Assembly: GCA_004284765.1 (NCBI GenBank)
Contig: NQJD01000065.1
Span: forward strand, 1-8,140
Direction of reading: 5' to 3'
Source of the DNA: Candidatus Electronema aureum
GTDB lineage: Bacteria > Desulfobacterota > Desulfobulbia > Desulfobulbales > Desulfobulbaceae
DNA length: 8,140 nt
Shown here: one piece after another, positions 2,292 through 8,140 of the stretch
How positions within the stretch are numbered: the stretch's first letter is position 1
Layout: every line of letters starts with the position of its first letter
The notes under the pieces: generated by a model
Databases searched by the model: none
Seen by the model: the letters and a program-made list of their open reading frames with translations, nothing else
What the model was told of the DNA's origin: nothing
Program-made: the position numbers and the translations under genes

Positions 2292-2546
2292 TCAAACCTT
2301 TTCCTCTTTCAGGCAGAACCAAAGCTCGTCCAGCTTCATTGAACGCACCCGTTTCGGTGCCCAGTGATGCTTCTGCATCAAATAATAATGCACTGCCTCC
2401 AGGCCGGACACCTGCTCATACTTCTCGCGCTTGGCCAGCTTGTCGCCGATTTCCGCCAAGAGCTGCACGTTGATGACGGGCGGTGTGCCCTTGTGCTCGG
2501 CCTCGGCCAGCTCGGCCTCGGTATGAACTTTCTTGCTTTTGGTCAT
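2292..2546 (-). CDS. Hypothetical 84-aa protein encoded between pstS and pstC; no family recognised
   Basis: The ATG at 2546 is preceded by a consensus AAGGAG with a 7-nt spacer, so I prefer it to the upstream ATG at 2570. Third-position GC bias and codon choice resemble the flanking host genes. Charged and helical-looking (MTKSKKVHTEAELAEAEHKG...HYYLMQKHHWAPKRVRSMKLDELWFCLKEEKV). Stop TGA at 2292-2294. Confidence 0.6.
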   Translation of the reverse strand: MTKSKKVHTEAELAEAEHKGTPPVINVQLLAEIGDKLAKREKYEQVSGLEAVHYYLMQKHHWAPKRVRSMKLDELWFCLKEEKV

Positions 2547-2571
2547 GTTGCTGCTCCTTGCTTGTTGCATT

Positions 2572-2637: not shown

Positions 2638-3696
2638 TCAGTTTGCAGGCCAGACCGGCTTGCCGCCAGCGGTGATTTCCTTGGCCCAGGTCTCCTGCAC
2701 CATCTGGATCACGTTCTCCGGCATGGTGACATAATGCAGCTTCTCAGCGGTCTCTTTGCCGTGCTTGTAAGCCCAGTCAAAGAACTTGAGCGTGGCTGCG
2801 GCGATGTCCGCCTTGTCATGCTGCTTGTACACAAGGATGTAGGACACGCCGGTGATCGGCCAGCTTTCCTTGCCCGGCTGGTCAGTGAGGAAGAGGCCGA
2901 AGCCTTCCTCTGCCTTCCACTCGGCGTTGGCCGCAGCGGCTTGGAAGGTGGCGCTGGTCGGCTCAACCTCGCCGCCGTCGCGGTTGCGCAGCTTGACATG
3001 GGAGAGCTTGTTCTGCAAGGCATAGGCGTACTCCACATAGCCGATGGAGCCGTTGACCTTGCGCACATAGGCGGACACGCCCTCATTGCCCTTGCCGCCC
3101 ACGCCCACCGGCCATTCCACGGTCTTGCCTGCGCCGATCTTCTCCTTCCACTCCGGCGAAACCTTGGCCAAGTAGTTGGTGAAGATGCTGGTGGTGCCGG
3201 AGCCGTCAGCGCGGCGCACCACAGTGATCTTCTGCTCCGGCAGCTGGAGGCCTGGGTTCAGGCCAGCAATGGCCGGGTCGTTCCATGTATTGACTTTGCC
3301 AAGAAAGATATCCGCCACCAAGGCGTTCGTCAACAGCATCTTGCCCGGCTCAATGCCTTTGACATTGATGATCGGCACCACGCCGCCCATGATCATCGGG
3401 AACTGGAGCAGGCCGACCTGATTCAGCTCCTCGGTCTTCAGCGGATCGTCAGACGCGCCGAAGTCAACTGTCTTGGCCTTGATCTGGGCGATGCCGCCGC
3501 CGGAGCCGATGGACTGGTAGTTGACCTGCACGCCGGTCAGCTGATTGTACTGATGCGCCCACTGGCCATAGACCGGGAAGGGGAAGGACGCGCCTGCGCC
3601 GCTGACGGCCTGCGCCGCTGCGGGACTGTGGCTGCTCAACGCGGCGGCCAAGGTGATGACGGCTGCCGCTGTCCAACGAAATGCGTTCAATTTCAT
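2638..3696 (-). CDS. pstS: Periplasmic phosphate-binding protein PstS
   Basis: 352 aa with a Sec signal peptide (MKLNAFRWTAAAVITLAAALSSHSPAAAQA). The mature part aligns by eye along its length with E. coli PstS (GAGASFPFPVYGQWA / GAGATFPAPVYAKWA; VNYQSIGSGGGI; VDFGASDDPL; VVRRADGSGTT; GYVEYAYA; FFDWAY). RBS gaggaaaa lies upstream of the ATG at 3696. Confidence 0.95.
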   Translation of the reverse strand: MKLNAFRWTAAAVITLAAALSSHSPAAAQAVSGAGASFPFPVYGQWAHQYNQLTGVQVNYQSIGSGGGIAQIKAKTVDFGASDDPLKTEELNQVGLLQFPMIMGGVVPIINVKGIEPGKMLLTNALVADIFLGKVNTWNDPAIAGLNPGLQLPEQKITVVRRADGSGTTSIFTNYLAKVSPEWKEKIGAGKTVEWPVGVGGKGNEGVSAYVRKVNGSIGYVEYAYALQNKLSHVKLRNRDGGEVEPTSATFQAAAANAEWKAEEGFGLFLTDQPGKESWPITGVSYILVYKQHDKADIAAATLKFFDWAYKHGKETAEKLHYVTMPENVIQMVQETWAKEITAGGKPVWPAN

Positions 3697-3782
3697 GATG
3701 GGATTTTCCTCGCTTGCGGTTGGCTGCTGATTTTTGTTACGATAAACGACTTATGTGTCCGCTTCAACGTTTTTCGTGAACC

Positions 3783-3814
3783 ACGATATCCAAGCCGTGT
3801 TAGGAAAATGTGAG
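3783..3814 (-). promoter_or_regulatory. Candidate Pho box plus -10 element for pstS (weak call)
   Basis: The minus strand reads CTCACAT-TTTC-CTAACAC (3814-3797). These are two 7-mers at 11-bp spacing, each matching 5/7 of the E. coli Pho-box half-site CTGTCAT/C with a T-rich spacer. It is followed after 8 nt by TATCGT (3788-3783). It lies about 100 nt upstream of the pstS ATG. No other evidence. Confidence 0.3.
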
Positions 3815-3856
3815 GATGGGATAAAAAATGCGTCGGCCACTGAAAAATATCGCTTA

Positions 3857-3935
3857 TTACCTGTCCTCATCCACCTTAAACCCACCCGCCCACGAGATCA
3901 GCTTGATCTAACGCAGGGTTTCCTTGGCCGTAAAG
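3857..3935 (-). pseudogene. Degraded partial duplicate of the DUF1232 gene at 5630-5878
   Basis: 3868-3902 aligns to 5656-5690 (32/35 identical) and 3903-3935 aligns to 5796-5828 (28/33). The intervening 105 bp of the intact gene is missing, and the junction falls in an 8-bp repeat AGATCAGC present at 5683-5690 and 5788-5795. The remnant keeps the frame but carries an in-frame TAG (3908-3910, where the intact copy has TAT) and lacks the first 17 or so codons. It ends at its own TAA (3857-3859). Confidence 0.7.
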
Positions 3936-3987
3936 CATTTTTCATCATCAGGACGGTGCAGGGTAGAGGATTAAACTGCTCCAGCTA

Positions 3988-5586
3988 TTATTCATCGTTC
4001 CTTGAATCGGGTATTTTTTCTATTATGCACTTAGAGTTATCGGATGGTATTAATTCTATATCTACCAAGTCACCAATATTAATCTTCTCATATTGATTAT
4101 TTATTACTTTTGTCTTTACATCTGTAAATGTTTCTGACAGCTTTGGAAGAGGCAATTCTTTGTCGAATAGTTTGATTTTCCCGTGTTCGGATTGGTCTAC
4201 CCTAAAATAGATAGATTTCTCTTGATTATTGTATAATATTATTGAATCGCTATTAACTTCCATTTGTTTGATACATAGAGATTTGTTGTATGGGATAACA
4301 GATGAGCCATCTGATAATACCTTATGAATTATTTTTACTTCTGAATATATATCATCCGTTAGTTCAAATAAACTATTATAACATAGCTGATATTTCAATT
4401 TTCTCGATATATCCCTCGCCATCCTGATAAAGTCTAAATAAATAAACTGAGTTGAAAACGATGAGTTCTCGGCGCATTTCTCTGAACACGTTGAAAATAG
4501 AATTCTCCCTTCGCTTTCCACTGAAACAGTCAATATCCAATTATTATTTATCTTGTAGTAAAGATCATAAATTTGGTCAAAATATTGCATTTTATTCAAC
4601 TCACGTCCATCCCATATCTTATAATTTACAGTAATTCTATATTCAACTTTTGCAAGCCCACTTTCTCGGTCAAAAAATATTCCGATTTTTATCAAGAACA
4701 ATCCTCCTAATCCTTCTGCTTTTATGGTCGCTGACTCAGTTCCAGAAACCTCGTCACCGTGCAAATCATAAAATGATACTTCAGATTTCAAATCTGGAGA
4801 TATTGTTTTAATTCTAACTAAAATTGTTCTCTTGCAAGAACAACCTAAGTATATTTTTGAATTTTCATTTATTTCCAAACTTGGAAGTCCTTCAATTTTA
4901 ACTTCGCTGCTGTCAAAAGATACGCAGCTTCCATGCTTAATTAATTCTTTAAACTTTTCGGTCTTTACTGTTAATTTAACATCAATGGGTTCCTTTGGAT
5001 GAAGGAAATGATGAGTTTCTCCGTTGTAAAAATTTGTCTTAACAGTAAATCTTGGATCTAACTTTTCTATATAACCTGATGCAGCCTTGCTGGCATTTGG
5101 CATCAAATTAGGAAGAAAAACCGATGTCTGCCCTGTTGCCGCCGCTACCAGAGTATTTATCGCATCCTGTTCATCAGGAAGTTTTTTTCCTTGCTCACGC
5201 TTTGCGCTTTCCTCCGCCTTCTTTTTCCATTCATGCAGCAATGCTACAGTATATGTTTCCTCATCTTTATCAATTTTGTCAGCACAATTTGCACATAACC
5301 AGATTCCATTTGTTATGGATTGTCTCTCTTCAGATTCTAATGCCTTATTGTAACGCCTGGCACCAGGTCCGGGGGCAGCCGCTGTGATGTGCGCAGCCTC
5401 GCCGATGCTGTTTACTTTTTCCGACCCTTCATCAGATGGCGCATCAGTTGGGACGCGGCACTCAGGATTTGAACATCTGTTTCCTGCTCTTCTTCGTAAC
5501 GAATTTATTGTTTTCTGAGAGAAATCATCTCTGTTGTTCTTCTTTTGCGAGACGGTCATGTTCTGTTTTAATATGGTGTCTTGCAT
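3988..5586 (-). CDS. 532-aa protein: N-terminal HNH (beta-beta-alpha-Me)/zinc-ribbon nuclease-like domain fused to an uncharacterised C-terminal region of about 360 aa
   Basis: Long uninterrupted ORF in very AT-rich DNA, which is unlikely by chance. Residues about 30-112 (nt 5251-5499) carry C38-x4-C43 ... GEAAH66ITAAAPGPGARRY ... ITN93GIWLC98ANC101ADKID. This is the layout of Cys4 HNH nucleases: catalytic His in AHI, structural Asn, and two Cys pairs. The remainder (FTVKTNFYNGETHHF ... IELIPSDNSKCIIEKIPDSRNDE) looks beta-rich and I recognise no motifs. The start at 5586 has only a weak AAGG 10 nt upstream. Confidence 0.8.
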   Translation of the reverse strand: MQDTILKQNMTVSQKKNNRDDFSQKTINSLRRRAGNRCSNPECRVPTDAPSDEGSEKVNSIGEAAHITAAAPGPGARRYNKALESEERQSITNGIWLCANCADKIDKDEETYTVALLHEWKKKAEESAKREQGKKLPDEQDAINTLVAAATGQTSVFLPNLMPNASKAASGYIEKLDPRFTVKTNFYNGETHHFLHPKEPIDVKLTVKTEKFKELIKHGSCVSFDSSEVKIEGLPSLEINENSKIYLGCSCKRTILVRIKTISPDLKSEVSFYDLHGDEVSGTESATIKAEGLGGLFLIKIGIFFDRESGLAKVEYRITVNYKIWDGRELNKMQYFDQIYDLYYKINNNWILTVSVESEGRILFSTCSEKCAENSSFSTQFIYLDFIRMARDISRKLKYQLCYNSLFELTDDIYSEVKIIHKVLSDGSSVIPYNKSLCIKQMEVNSDSIILYNNQEKSIYFRVDQSEHGKIKLFDKELPLPKLSETFTDVKTKVINNQYEKINIGDLVDIELIPSDNSKCIIEKIPDSRNDE

Positions 5587-5597
5587 TGCAATTCAGC

Positions 5598-5614
5598 CTT
5601 ATTAGCATAATAAG
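5598..5614. promoter_or_regulatory. AT-rich perfect palindrome in the 43-bp spacer upstream of the HNH-fusion gene; possible operator or RBS-occluding hairpin
   Basis: cttatta-gca-taataag has 7-bp arms and a 3-bp centre. On the minus strand its 3' arm runs into the AAGG that is the only SD-like element before the ATG at 5586. -10-like TATGCT/TAATAA strings overlap it. Confidence 0.3.
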
Positions 5615-5629
5615 AATATTGCGCCGCAA

Positions 5630-5878
5630 CTATTTATCCTTAGAATTTCCTTCCCCATCCACCTTAAACCCGCTTGCCCACGAGATCAGCAGCGCAGCCA
5701 AGGTTAAATCATCCATCACCCCGATGATTGGCAGCCATTCAGGGATAATATCCCACGGCGAAACGATGTAGAGCAGACCAAACCCCAAGATCAGCTTGAC
5801 ATAACGCGGGGTTTCCTTGGCCCGAAAGACATGCCAAGCATGTCTTGTCATGCTAATGGCACGAGTAAGTGGATTCAT
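5630..5878 (-). CDS. Small membrane protein of the DUF1232 / YkvA family
   Basis: 82 aa with the family signature LLYIVSPWDIIPEWLPIIGVMDDLTLAALL (consensus Y-x-x-SP-x-D-x-IPD-x-x-P-x-x-G-x-x-DD). Its ATG (5876-5878) directly abuts the TGA of the upstream fabI-like gene (TGAATG), implying co-translation with the fab-like operon. Confidence 0.85.
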   Translation of the reverse strand: MNPLTRAISMTRHAWHVFRAKETPRYVKLILGFGLLYIVSPWDIIPEWLPIIGVMDDLTLAALLISWASGFKVDGEGNSKDK

Positions 5879-6679
5879 TCAGCGCACCGCCTTGCTGATA
5901 ATGTCTTTGTCGAAATAGTTGAAGCTCATGCCTGCGTCAACAACAATGGTCTGGCCGTTGATGCCGGAAGAGCGCGGCGAGAGCAGAAAGGCGGCTGCAT
6001 CAGCGACTTCTTCGGTGCGCAACGCCTGCTTGCGGGGAATGGCCTGCTCGGCGAAGATGTAGGAGTCAATGTAGCCGGGAATGCCCGCCGAGGCCGAGGT
6101 TTTCAGTAGGCTGGCCCCGACCGCGTTGAAGCGCACCCGTGAGAAGGCGGAGAAGGACTTGGCGAGAAAGCAGAGCGAGGAATCCAAGGCTGCTTTGACC
6201 GGGGCCATGTAGCCGTAGTTCTCTGAGGCCATGCGGGTGGTGGAAATGGAGATCGTCACCATCGCGCCGTCGGGATCAAGCAGTTCTTTGAAGTGATTAG
6301 CAATGGCGATGAAGGAAAAACAGGAGATGTCTATCGCTTGCAGGAAGTCGCGCTTCACAGTGCCGTGAAAGGGCTGCATTCCTTCGGAGTAATTGGCAAA
6401 GGCGATGGAATGGACAATGCCCGCAATCGGCCCGACGACTTGGGCAGCGATTTCGTCTCGCACCCTGATGATGTTTGCTTCGTTTTCCACATCGCAGCAG
6501 AAAACCGGGCTGGCCGGAAAGAGCTTGCGGCAGGTTGCGGCCCGCTCCTCGCTGCGCACGACATGAATCACTTCGGCTCCGGCTTCAAACAGTGCCTTGC
6601 CGACAGCGCAGGCCACCGACTTCTTGTTTGCCAAGCCGAAGATGACGACCTTCTTGCCTGCCAGCTTGAGAAAATCCAT
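5879..6679 (-). CDS. Enoyl-ACP reductase, FabI-like SDR (266 aa from the preferred start)
   Basis: Aligns by eye with E. coli FabI: [30 protein letters not shown] / [39 protein letters not shown] / CDVAEDASI; GIVHSIAFA / GFVHSIGFA. The catalytic Y-x6-K is present (NYGYMAPVK). The preferred start is the ATG at 6679, with AAGGAGG 6 nt upstream, overlapping the upstream TAA as TAATG. The 28-codon Arg-rich extension back to 6763 looks spurious. Confidence 0.85.
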
Positions 6680-7113
6680 TACTCGCCTCCTTTTAAGGCG
6701 CAGGCGAATTCCACCTGCACGGCAATCTTGCCGCCGACCTGCACACCGCCTTTGAGAAACCAAGCCGGGCCGACCTGCTCTTTCAAGGCCGCTGTGATTT
6801 CAATCAAATCGCCGGGCCGCACCTCGCGCTTGAACTTTGCGCCAAGAATGCGGGTCAACACCGGTACGCCCTGCAAATCCTGCTTGCCGCGCAGCGTTTC
6901 GGCAATCAGCAAGGCTCCAGCCTGAAAGACCGCCTCGCAGAGCAACACGCCCGGCATGATCGGATAGTCAGGATAATGCCCTTTGAAGACATCCAACTCC
7001 GCCGATACGGTTGTTTCTGCCCGGATTGCGCTCTCGGTCAACTCCAGCACCCGGTCAAGCCAAAGAAACGGGGGCCGGTGCGGAATCCGGGCGGTAATAA
7101 ACTCTCTGTCCAT
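6679..7113 (-). CDS. 3-hydroxyacyl-ACP dehydratase, FabZ/FabA-like hotdog fold
   Basis: 144-145 aa. [11 protein letters not shown] ... [27 protein letters not shown] matches the FabZ active-site block (H-F-P-x-x-P-x-x-PGVL ... E). The ATG at 7113 has GGAGGG 5 nt upstream and overlaps the fabG-like TGA as TGATG. A GTG at 7116 is an alternative start. Confidence 0.85.
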
Positions 7114-7883
7114 CACAACCCTCCGGTCACTTCCAGCACCGAGCCGTTGATATAAGCCGCCCGCTTGTCAGCGAGAAACAGCACCGCGTCCGCCACTTCT
7201 TCCGGTGTGCCAAAACGGCCCGCAGGCACCAGTTTCTTGTAGTCCTTCATCTGCTCTTCGGAGAGATCGCCGATGAATTCCGTGCCGATGAAGCCGGGCG
7301 AGACGCAGTTGACCGTGATCTTCCGCTTCGCCACCTCTTTGGAAAGCGATTTCATCAGCCCGACCTGTCCGGCCTTGGAAGCGGCGTAATTGGCCTGCCC
7401 GGCAAAACCGAGATGGCCCATCGGCGAGGTGATGAAGATGATGCGACCGTATTTCTGCTTCAGCATCAGCGGCAGGGCGAAGCGGCACATGTTATAGCCG
7501 CCGGTGAGGTTGACATCCAAGACGCGCTGCCAGTCCTCCTGCCGCATCATGGCTAAGACTGCGTCGCGGCGGATGCCCGCGTTGTTGACGAGGATATCAA
7601 TGGTGTCGAATTGCTCTTCGGTCTCGCGGCAGAAGACTTGCACGGCCTTGCAGTCGCTGACATCCACCTTGTGCAGACGCAGACGCTCGCCCGCTTCAGG
7701 ATGCGCGGCGGCAAAGGCGGAGGCTGCGGCCTCATCGCCGCTGTACAGGCCAAGTACGGTTGCTCCTTGGGCCAGCAGAGCCTCAGTAATTGCTTTGCCT
7801 ATGCCTTTGGTCGCGCCGGTAACAATGGCTTTTTGATTGGTGAAGGTGTTCAAAGGTGATTCTCGCGGTTGTTTTTTCAGCAA
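7113..7883 (-). CDS. 3-oxoacyl-ACP reductase, FabG-like classical SDR
   Basis: Rossmann motif AIVTGATKGIGKAI, NNAG, and the catalytic S...YAASK triad. Length is typical for the family. The start is uncertain. There is no ATG upstream of the Rossmann motif. The ORF opens with TTG at 7883 directly after an in-frame TAA, and another TTG lies at 7853. Neither has a convincing SD. Confidence 0.82.
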   Translation of the reverse strand: MLKKQPRESPLNTFTNQKAIVTGATKGIGKAITEALLAQGATVLGLYSGDEAAASAFAAAHPEAGERLRLHKVDVSDCKAVQVFCRETEEQFDTIDILVNNAGIRRDAVLAMMRQEDWQRVLDVNLTGGYNMCRFALPLMLKQKYGRIIFITSPMGHLGFAGQANYAASKAGQVGLMKSLSKEVAKRKITVNCVSPGFIGTEFIGDLSEEQMKDYKKLVPAGRFGTPEEVADAVLFLADKRAAYINGSVLEVTGGL

Positions 7884-8140
7884 TTAGTTATTGAGCAACT
7901 GCTTGAGCTGCTTCAGAAGTGCTGGAATGTCTTTTTCAATAGCATCCCATACGATTTCATTTTCGACAACATCATAACCGTGGGCAATCACGTTTCTGAA
8001 GCCGATAATCTGCTAATAGAGATCTGTGAGTGATCAATGAAATAAAATACAATCGTTGTAGTGATTAATAAATCTCCAAACAGATGCAGTTAAGTTTTCA
8101 ATGCTTCTCGAAAACGAAAATGTCTTCCTGACTAATGCCG
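7884..8140 (-). pseudogene. HEPN-domain toxin remnant (DUF86 / HepT-like), disrupted by in-frame stops
   Basis: The minus frame ending at TAA 7884-7886 reads QIIGFRNVIAHGYDVVENEIVWDAIEKDIPALLKQLKQLLNN (7887-8012). This carries the HEPN R-x4-H motif (RNVIAH) and the usual DUF86 C-terminal helix. Immediately upstream in the same frame are TAG (8013-8015, where the family often has Trp) and TGA (8034-8036). Further upstream the frame reads ...RSIENLTASVWRFINHYND, only vaguely HepT-like. The 5' end is outside the window. Confidence 0.55.

Follow-up and report, generated by a model that had tools for sequence, protein, structure and literature searches.

A DUF1232 pseudogene next to a low-GC HNH nuclease gene in Candidatus Electronema aureum: a probable recombination scar at the fabI locus

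Introduction

Defence hotspots flanked by core genes, or 'minimal mobile elements', are exchanged by homologous recombination. In the T6SS clusters of Vibrio cholerae, incoming modules displace resident genes via homology-facilitated illegitimate recombination (HFIR) (PMC5361080). The same paper cites the first HFIR studies, made in Acinetobacter, Streptococcus and Pseudomonas, and a related case, the displacement of Rhs C-termini (PMC5361080).

Here we describe a locus of the cable bacterium Candidatus Electronema aureum at which a low-GC nuclease gene lies between an intact gene of the DUF1232 family, whose product is a small membrane protein, and the remnant of a second one. The window, which denotes the whole stretch of DNA that was analysed, comprises 8,140 nucleotides (contig NQJD01000065.1). 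A sequence-only reading had described the low-GC gene as bracketed by two diverged DUF1232 copies, the left one being damaged. This observation and much of its interpretation are borne out by the present analysis; the boundaries had to be redrawn, and a 10-nt deletion had been missed. The remnant is a recombination scar of a kind already known from elsewhere, and it can probably be read as a dated footprint of the entry of a foreign nuclease gene into a housekeeping operon of a cable bacterium.

Organization of the locus

The genes fabG, fabZ-like, fabI-like, DUF1232, the low-GC gene (hereafter the cargo), the remnant and pstS are all encoded on the minus strand (Table 1), and beyond a 92-aa ORF follow pstC and then pstA. 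This ORF, an unusual member for pst operons, weakly resembles the phage-associated family ECs1072, with a score below the cut-off (E 5.5e-7). Among species representatives the best match of the fabI-like protein is found in Candidatus Electronema halotolerans (91%).

Table 1 Features of the locus in window coordinates
Feature	Position	Strand	Evidence
fabG	7883-7113	-	
fabZ-like	7116-6679	-	
fabI-like	6679-5879	-	
Intact DUF1232 gene, 82 aa	5630-5878	-	Pfam PF06803, E 2.6e-12
Repeat-to-repeat stretch of the intact gene holding the 105 bp	5683-5795	.	
Spacer, 43 nt, from intact DUF1232 stop to annotated HNH start	5587-5629	-	
Low-GC HNH cargo gene, 532 aa	3988-5586	-	GC, PADLOC, structure model
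DUF1232 (YkvA-family) pseudogene remnant, nearly full length	3852-3984	-	nhmmer, alignments, translation
Remnant N-terminal part, 'KQLNPFTRAvLMAKH' allele class	3936-3984	-	Orthologue alignment, shuffles
Remnant middle part, gene codons ~19-31, 88% identical to 5788-5828	3895-3935	-	
Remnant C-terminal part; 3864-3902 90% identical to 5652-5690	3852-3902	-	
Deletion junction AGATCAGC, sole remaining copy of the 8-bp repeat	3895-3902	.	
pstS, downstream neighbour of the remnant	2638-3696	-	
92-aa ORF between pstS and pstC	2292-2570	-	

The window is identical to a part of OW818638.1 (assembly GCA_942492785.1). Short-read assemblies made independently from three sequencing runs agree with it at 100% identity in all overlaps, and one independent short-read contig covers fabG through pstS; therefore the two-copy arrangement is not an artefact of assembly. 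One short-read contig (L086, run SRR27356122) is identical to the window over pstC-pstS and ends inside the remnant (window 3885), a break that could be due to low coverage or to a strain difference at the cargo site.

The GC content falls to 37-39% at both window ends (1-300 and 7884-8140). A fragment of a DDE_3 (IS630-type) transposase is located at 24-233 on the plus strand, and GmrSD, DUF4160/DUF2442 and MNT/HepT genes are found in the genome upstream of fabG. The fab-DUF1232 block is a core islet flanked by mobile and defence DNA. An Rfam search of the window found no family, and promoter and terminator scans of 3600-6000 gave counts at the level of shuffled sequence.

The intact copy is a member of the DUF1232/YkvA family, as the 37-residue core (…SPWDxIPExxPxxGxxDD…) is matched with 46.7 bits, the gathering cut-off of Pfam being 23. 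Its N-terminus reads MNPLTRAISMTRH, and its ATG abuts the fabI stop (GCGCTGA directly followed by ATGAATCC); most Electronema DUF1232 genes start with MAIKQLNPFTRA… and overlap the fabI stop. The MNPL class with an identical fabI-stop/ATG junction exists also in the lineage L177 (contig JACCEE012149172). At its C-terminus the intact copy carries the extension GEGNSKDK, which is otherwise present only in a protein of Desulfobulbus sp. F5 (P0122); F5 also has the closest DUF1232 allele.

In a sliding comparison the 3' end of fabI (6095-5879) is 94-96% identical to L177 and 86-92% identical to other lineages. Together with codons 1-18 of DUF1232 it forms one contiguous L177-like stretch from ~6095 to ~5829, which is a candidate homologous-recombination tract. 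Past codon ~18 the best matches become sp. PJ and L092 (95%), and this switch point (~5828) coincides with the point from which the intact copy and the remnant resemble each other. The fab operon (5630-7883) is mosaic when compared with the lineages L176, L092, L174, L005 and L177, with 91-97% identity to sp. VV at 7367-7068 and 96% identity to sp. PJ at 6917-6693. Judged from these alignments, recombination among Electronema lineages appears to be frequent, and because best matches to different lineages alternate along the entire fab operon, the L177-like tract may be an unrelated patch.

The DUF1232 remnant

The similarity of 3868-3935 to two separated pieces of the intact gene, which had been put at 60 of 68 positions (88%), is reproduced exactly: 32 of 35 nucleotides are identical between 3868-3902 and 5656-5690, and 28 of 33 between 3903-3935 and 5796-5828. 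In a direct-repeat search the top repeats of the region are collinear, namely 3864-3902/5652-5690 (90%) and 3890-3935/5783-5828 (85%). The similarity is significant, since the local alignment of 3857-3935 with the intact gene scores 43.4, a value reached by none of 1000 shuffles (mean 7.9, sd 1.4) and about 25 sd above them.

The damage described by the sequence-only reading is likewise present. The missing 105 bp correspond to 5691-5795, i.e. 35 codons in frame, and they contain the conserved DUF1232 core. They are bounded by the 8-bp repeat AGATCAGC with copies at 5683-5690 and 5788-5795, and this octamer occurs only three times in the window (5683, 5788 and the remnant junction at 3895). 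Such a loss between 8-bp repeats is an ordinary slipped or illegitimate deletion and presumably a later event. Furthermore, the TAT codon of the intact gene (5801-5803, minus strand) is a TAG nonsense codon in the remnant (3908-3910).

The homology at 3868-3935 stands, but the remnant itself extends further. With a nucleotide profile made from six Electronema DUF1232 genes, nhmmer matches 3982-3895 (E 2.7e-11) and 3902-3852 (E 6e-5), so that the remnant (~3852 to 3984) is a nearly complete gene; it begins directly past the TAA stop (3990-3988) of the cargo. The two copies do delimit the cargo as had been claimed, with bounds of 3988-5629 in place of 3936-5629, because the remnant reaches ~3984.

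In an alignment with five Electronema orthologues, 3936-3984 represents the ~16 initial codons, with the N-terminus reading …QFNPLPCTVLMMKN… in the remnant and …KQLNPFTRAVLMAKH… in the orthologues. The stretch 3936-3987 is collinear with the 5' ends of the orthologues (32/44 to the gene of sp. VV), a score which none of 1000 shuffles reaches. Between 3936-3984 and the intact copy of the window itself no similarity was detectable, the score being no better than that of shuffles. The N-terminus of the remnant thus differs in class from that of the intact copy and is of the KQLNP type found in most Electronema genomes. Where they can be aligned the two copies are 10-15% diverged, and the first ~50 nt are unalignable. 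All five differences between the copies in the middle part are unique to the remnant, as are six of the eight informative differences in the C-terminal part. The intact copy has an unusual C-terminal extension, to which the tail of the remnant can be aligned if small gaps are allowed.

Altogether the remnant carries four lesions: the start codon is absent, a 10-nt deletion at the 3935/3936 boundary shifts the frame (this is the lesion absent from the earlier reading), and the TAG codon and the 105-bp deletion follow. Both the conserved core and the open reading frame are gone. The remnant, homologous by nucleotide profile, is a DUF1232 pseudogene without function. A structured RNA over the remnant, for which a 12-nt inverted repeat (3820-3831/3935-3946) was considered, was rejected, as the fold is no better than that of shuffles (z = -0.55).

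The locus in related genomes

The order fabG-fabZ-fabI-DUF1232 is conserved across many Desulfobulbaceae, each with one DUF1232 gene and with neither pstS nor a low-GC gene nearby. The empty site that the sequence-only reading had hoped to find in relatives exists in Ca. E. halotolerans (L005), in sp. VV (L174) and in about 30 others, and none of the relatives possesses two tandem DUF1232 genes. An old tandem duplication common to the relatives, which had been named as the finding that would overturn the reading, is therefore rejected, every relative being single-copy. Indirectly, the site also looks cargo-free in Desulfobulbus sp. F5, where none of the listed HNH homologues belongs to the 28-kb contig. 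A search for a cargo-free site within the same species, by exact-protein look-ups with DUF1232, HNH, pstS and fabI, yielded no contig that differed from the window.

The proposed comparison of the interval from fabI-like to pstS does not carry over, since pstS is no conserved neighbour in any relative examined; the adjacency of remnant and pstS is unique to the window genome among those examined. The downstream neighbour of the locus is in fact different in every Electronema genome examined, and a clean double crossover via conserved flanks is therefore unavailable. DAGK, the downstream neighbour in sp. VV, was considered as the ancestral neighbour and rejected because it is present nowhere else. 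In sp. PJ (L176 8250-8395) the contig ends 146 nt past DUF1232 in the C-terminus of an IS3-family-like transposase on the opposite strand.

Second DUF1232 matches were found only in the window genome and in L092/L093, the other ~30 loci being single, which ties the formation of remnants to the occupation of the fabI-linked site. In L092 the order is fabI-DUF1232-HNH531, and the HNH protein is 54-56% identical to that of the window. A remnant of ~50 nt, comprising the last ~18 codons of DUF1232 with a nonsense codon of its own, follows directly after the HNH stop and begins inside the GATGAT codons at this stop. ATGA is shared at this junction; the corresponding junction in the window (TAATAGC vs TGATGGC) is too decayed to judge microhomology. 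The intact DUF1232 gene of L092 switches from PJ-like to JM/VV-like near the start point of its remnant. L092 is an independent event of the same kind as the window, and the suggestion that the locus is a recurrent insertion site is supported by these occupied sites. The fabI-linked spot has thus been struck at least twice independently in the genus, and acquisition there leaves duplicated target-gene scars, not clean replacements.

HNH genes are also found elsewhere. In sp. JM (L091) a DUF1232-HNH535 pair with its own upstream terminator and promoter-like region is located between an acetyl-CoA synthetase gene and yjeF; there is no remnant. JM and L092 share the DUF1232-spacer-HNH unit, at a different locus in JM. 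In two genomes, sp. VV (L089) and the metagenome contig L094, an HNH gene lies between cinA and recA. In sp. VV (L089) its start overlaps the cinA stop and its stop overlaps the recA start; in L094 the overlap of cinA stop and HNH start is seen, and the contig ends inside the HNH gene. These two are the closest homologues of the cargo (L089 8001-9545, 65%; L094 402-1469, 63%). The gene of sp. VV (L089) has 35% GC in an operon of 62% GC, and a nuclease inside a recA operon is unusual.

A different insert is present in sp. VV (L174), where fabI and DUF1232 are separated precisely by a low-GC (38%) gene of the GH114 family (6960-8015). On its two sides ~27 nt of the fabI-stop/DUF1232-start junction are repeated imperfectly, and the relic copy is nearer to the genus consensus than the functional copy.

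The cargo gene

The GC content falls from ~59% to 29-36% across the 532-aa gene (36% in a background of 56-59%). Every cable-bacterial homologue begins (M-x-x-x-K-N-N-R-D-D-F) at the position that corresponds to the ATG at 5559, which is probably the real start, so that the annotated one would lie nine codons too far upstream. No family of Pfam or NCBIfam reaches threshold for the 532-aa protein. With PADLOC, residues ~20-130 match PDC-M68A (7.8e-24, covering only profile positions 4-112 of 253) and CBASS HNH effectors (1e-14 to 1e-11); the neighbouring DUF1232 protein, the only neighbour scanned, matched no PADLOC family. An AlphaFold model based on 38 homologues has a mean pLDDT of 85, and Foldseek matches the N-terminal ~110-120 residues to Cap5 (8fmh/8fmf/9dih, probability 1.0). 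Profile and fold searches thus both identify the HNH nuclease domain known from Cap5. For the C-terminal ~400 residues no credible fold match was found in PDB or BFVD. The Cap5 alignment covers the HNH part only and includes no SAVED domain, and no CD-NTase/cyclase gene was found in the window or the surrounding 20 kb. The cargo encodes the HNH protein alone, with no recombinase domain.

The nuclease part of the HNH genes is conserved among the cable-bacterial homologues, with 82% nucleotide identity between the window and L092, the remainder being highly diverged. The four cable-bacterial HNH genes examined have 33-36% GC in surroundings of 54-63% GC, and the limits of their insertions are within a few bases of the reading frames.

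More distant homologues adjoin PIN, TIR, AbiV, RES, AAA_13 and TniQ genes, and one adjoins a restriction S subunit on a Sulfuricurvum plasmid; the nuclease domain type of the cargo is also found in a variable locus of a P2 phage. The idea that DUF1232 generally accompanies the HNH family was rejected, since 0 of 80 metagenome loci with HNH homologues have DUF1232 nearby. As far as these loci indicate, the link between DUF1232 and HNH is limited to Electronema. Neighbourhood and domain similarity speak most for a nuclease of the defence type, and the cargo is probably an anti-phage defence gene that is carried within the operon. Its family, with a Cap5-like HNH domain and a large region without fold match, is a candidate single-gene defence protein that is so far uncharacterised.

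Origin of the remnant

The remnant is, in our judgement, probably the displaced DUF1232 copy, i.e. the scar of a block of a DUF1232 allele and the HNH gene that recombined into fabG-fabZ-fabI-DUF1232. The incoming DNA would have paired with the chromosome via homology on the side of fabI and DUF1232, and its non-homologous end, which equals the end of the HNH reading frame, would have been fused illegitimately to the other DUF1232 copy, at its start or close to it. Tandem DUF1232 copies with the nuclease gene between them would be the outcome of such a one-sided event. The downstream copy, perhaps the resident one, may then have decayed because only one copy was needed, by loss of the start codon, the 10-nt frameshift, the nonsense codon and the slipped 105-bp deletion between the 8-bp repeats.

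Two proposals of the sequence-only reading hold up here. A fresh target-site duplication had been dismissed, in agreement with the divergence of the copies of 10-15% and their unalignable first ~50 nt. In addition, arrival together with a neighbouring allele had been proposed, and both the L177-like tract and the N-terminus of the remnant, which is of the other allele class, fit this idea.

Besides the mosaic of the operon, the following observations speak against this explanation. Most of the middle and C-terminal differences are unique to the remnant, which also fits duplication in place followed by decay. The end of the mobile DNA coincides almost exactly with the HNH stop in four loci, a precision that random illegitimate joins would not obviously yield. 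Furthermore, the remnant-free DUF1232-HNH pair of sp. JM at an unrelated locus is not explained by one-sided recombination at fabI.

An alternative is a Campbell-type integration, in which a circle with the HNH gene and a piece of DUF1232 enters through a single RecA-mediated crossover in DUF1232 and generates two hybrid copies; recombination between the flanking repeats could release the circle again, so that the cassette would move without a recombinase of its own. The flanking duplications always consist of target-gene sequence and vary in length, from nearly the whole gene in the window to ~50 nt in L092 and ~27 nt at the GH114 insert of sp. VV. Moreover, the intact copy of L092 is a hybrid with its switch point near the start of its remnant, the two copies of the window can be read as reciprocal hybrids of F5-like and L177-like alleles, and JM shares the DUF1232-spacer-HNH unit with L092 at another locus. 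However, neither a circular form nor an excision product is known, homology over 27 nt is marginal for RecA, and the pair in JM lacks a flanking duplication. The middle of the remnant is, in a manual comparison, not L177-like, and reciprocal hybrids would need a mosaic resident allele. We consider this route unlikely.

Still less probable is a tandem duplication of DUF1232 in place, during or before the insertion of the HNH gene, without any foreign DUF1232 allele; the downstream copy would have decayed, and the N-terminus of the intact copy and the 3' end of fabI would later have been overwritten by an unrelated recombination patch. The differences unique to the remnant (5/5 in the middle, 6/8 informative ones in the C-terminal part) would be expected, the intact copy's rare C-terminal extension can be aligned with the tail of the remnant, and recombination patches are common in the fab operon. 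On the other hand, a tandem duplication without cargo is present in no relative, two events would have to end at one point (~5828), and the N-terminal part of the remnant is ~70% identical to any orthologue, compared with 85-90% to the intact copy elsewhere.

Homing, in which the HNH protein would cut cargo-free fabI/DUF1232 alleles (or, in relatives, sites near cinA/recA) and repair would copy the gene in, leaving remnants as by-products of one-sided repair, agrees with the frame-precise insertion of an HNH nuclease at two kinds of site, each between housekeeping genes that are conserved, with the patchy distribution among close relatives and the mosaic flanks, and with a conserved nuclease domain joined to a hypervariable C-terminal region in which target specificity could reside, but it is very improbable given that defence effectors of the Cap5 type are the closest match of the nuclease domain, that distant homologues reside in defence neighbourhoods and not between housekeeping genes, that Pfam, NCBIfam and fold searches found no known homing-enzyme DNA-binding modules in the protein, and that the start positions of the remnants differ between the two occupied sites. 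The wider idea that the cable-bacterial HNH genes propagate themselves, by homing or as a recombinase-free cassette carrying a piece of the target gene, with the C-terminus setting the target, is doubtful as well; if true, the DUF1232 remnants would be the footprints of this propagation.

Insertion by a transposon or an integrase was rejected, as there is no transposase, integrase, terminal inverted repeat or tRNA.

Comparison with known systems

The target-site duplication of a transposon is defined by repeats of 2-15 bp that are initially identical, together with terminal inverted repeats and a transposase. The repeats described here are ~130-250 bp long, 10-15% diverged and unalignable at one end, and no terminal inverted repeats were found at the cargo edges.

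More similar are islands that integrate at the 3' end of a gene (attL/attR), since an intact target gene is followed by the cargo and a displaced partial copy, in L092 exactly so. Unlike in these islands, the cargo contains no integrase, neither a tRNA nor a conserved core sequence is present, and the duplicated length varies from ~50 nt to nearly the whole gene. A site-specific integrative element is not indicated, as the junction positions differ between the window and L092. With free-standing homing endonuclease genes the locus shares a nuclease gene between conserved genes that is patchy among Electronema.

The cargo protein resembles Cap5 (HNH-SAVED, CBASS) in its N-terminal ~115 residues, which match the HNH domain by profile and fold, and differs from it by the missing SAVED domain and the lack of a cyclase gene nearby.

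Like the defence hotspots, the site is fixed by conserved genes, holds different or no cargo in relatives, and its cargo is low in GC and defence-like. Unlike in defence hotspots or minimal mobile elements, only the upstream flank is conserved here, and scars may form because replacement by double crossover is unavailable. As such, fabI-DUF1232 offers a concrete locus for the study of gene flow among uncultured cable bacteria. Of some note is that housekeeping loci of cable bacteria have repeatedly taken up genes of an uncharacterised nuclease family and that scars were left in the process.

The closest published analogue is the orphan-gene model of the Vibrio T6SS. Differences exist in that the displaced DUF1232 copy has no immunity function and decays, that the duplicated unit is the anchor gene itself, and that the mechanism is deduced here from the DNA sequence alone. 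In agreement with HFIR, DUF1232 sequence is retained downstream of the insert and cargo-free sites exist in relatives. As in the T6SS arrays of V. cholerae, a variable module is inserted directly downstream of a conserved upstream anchor, resident sequence ends up downstream of the module, where it persists as an orphan or remnant, and repeated events at one locus have led to outcomes that differ by strain.
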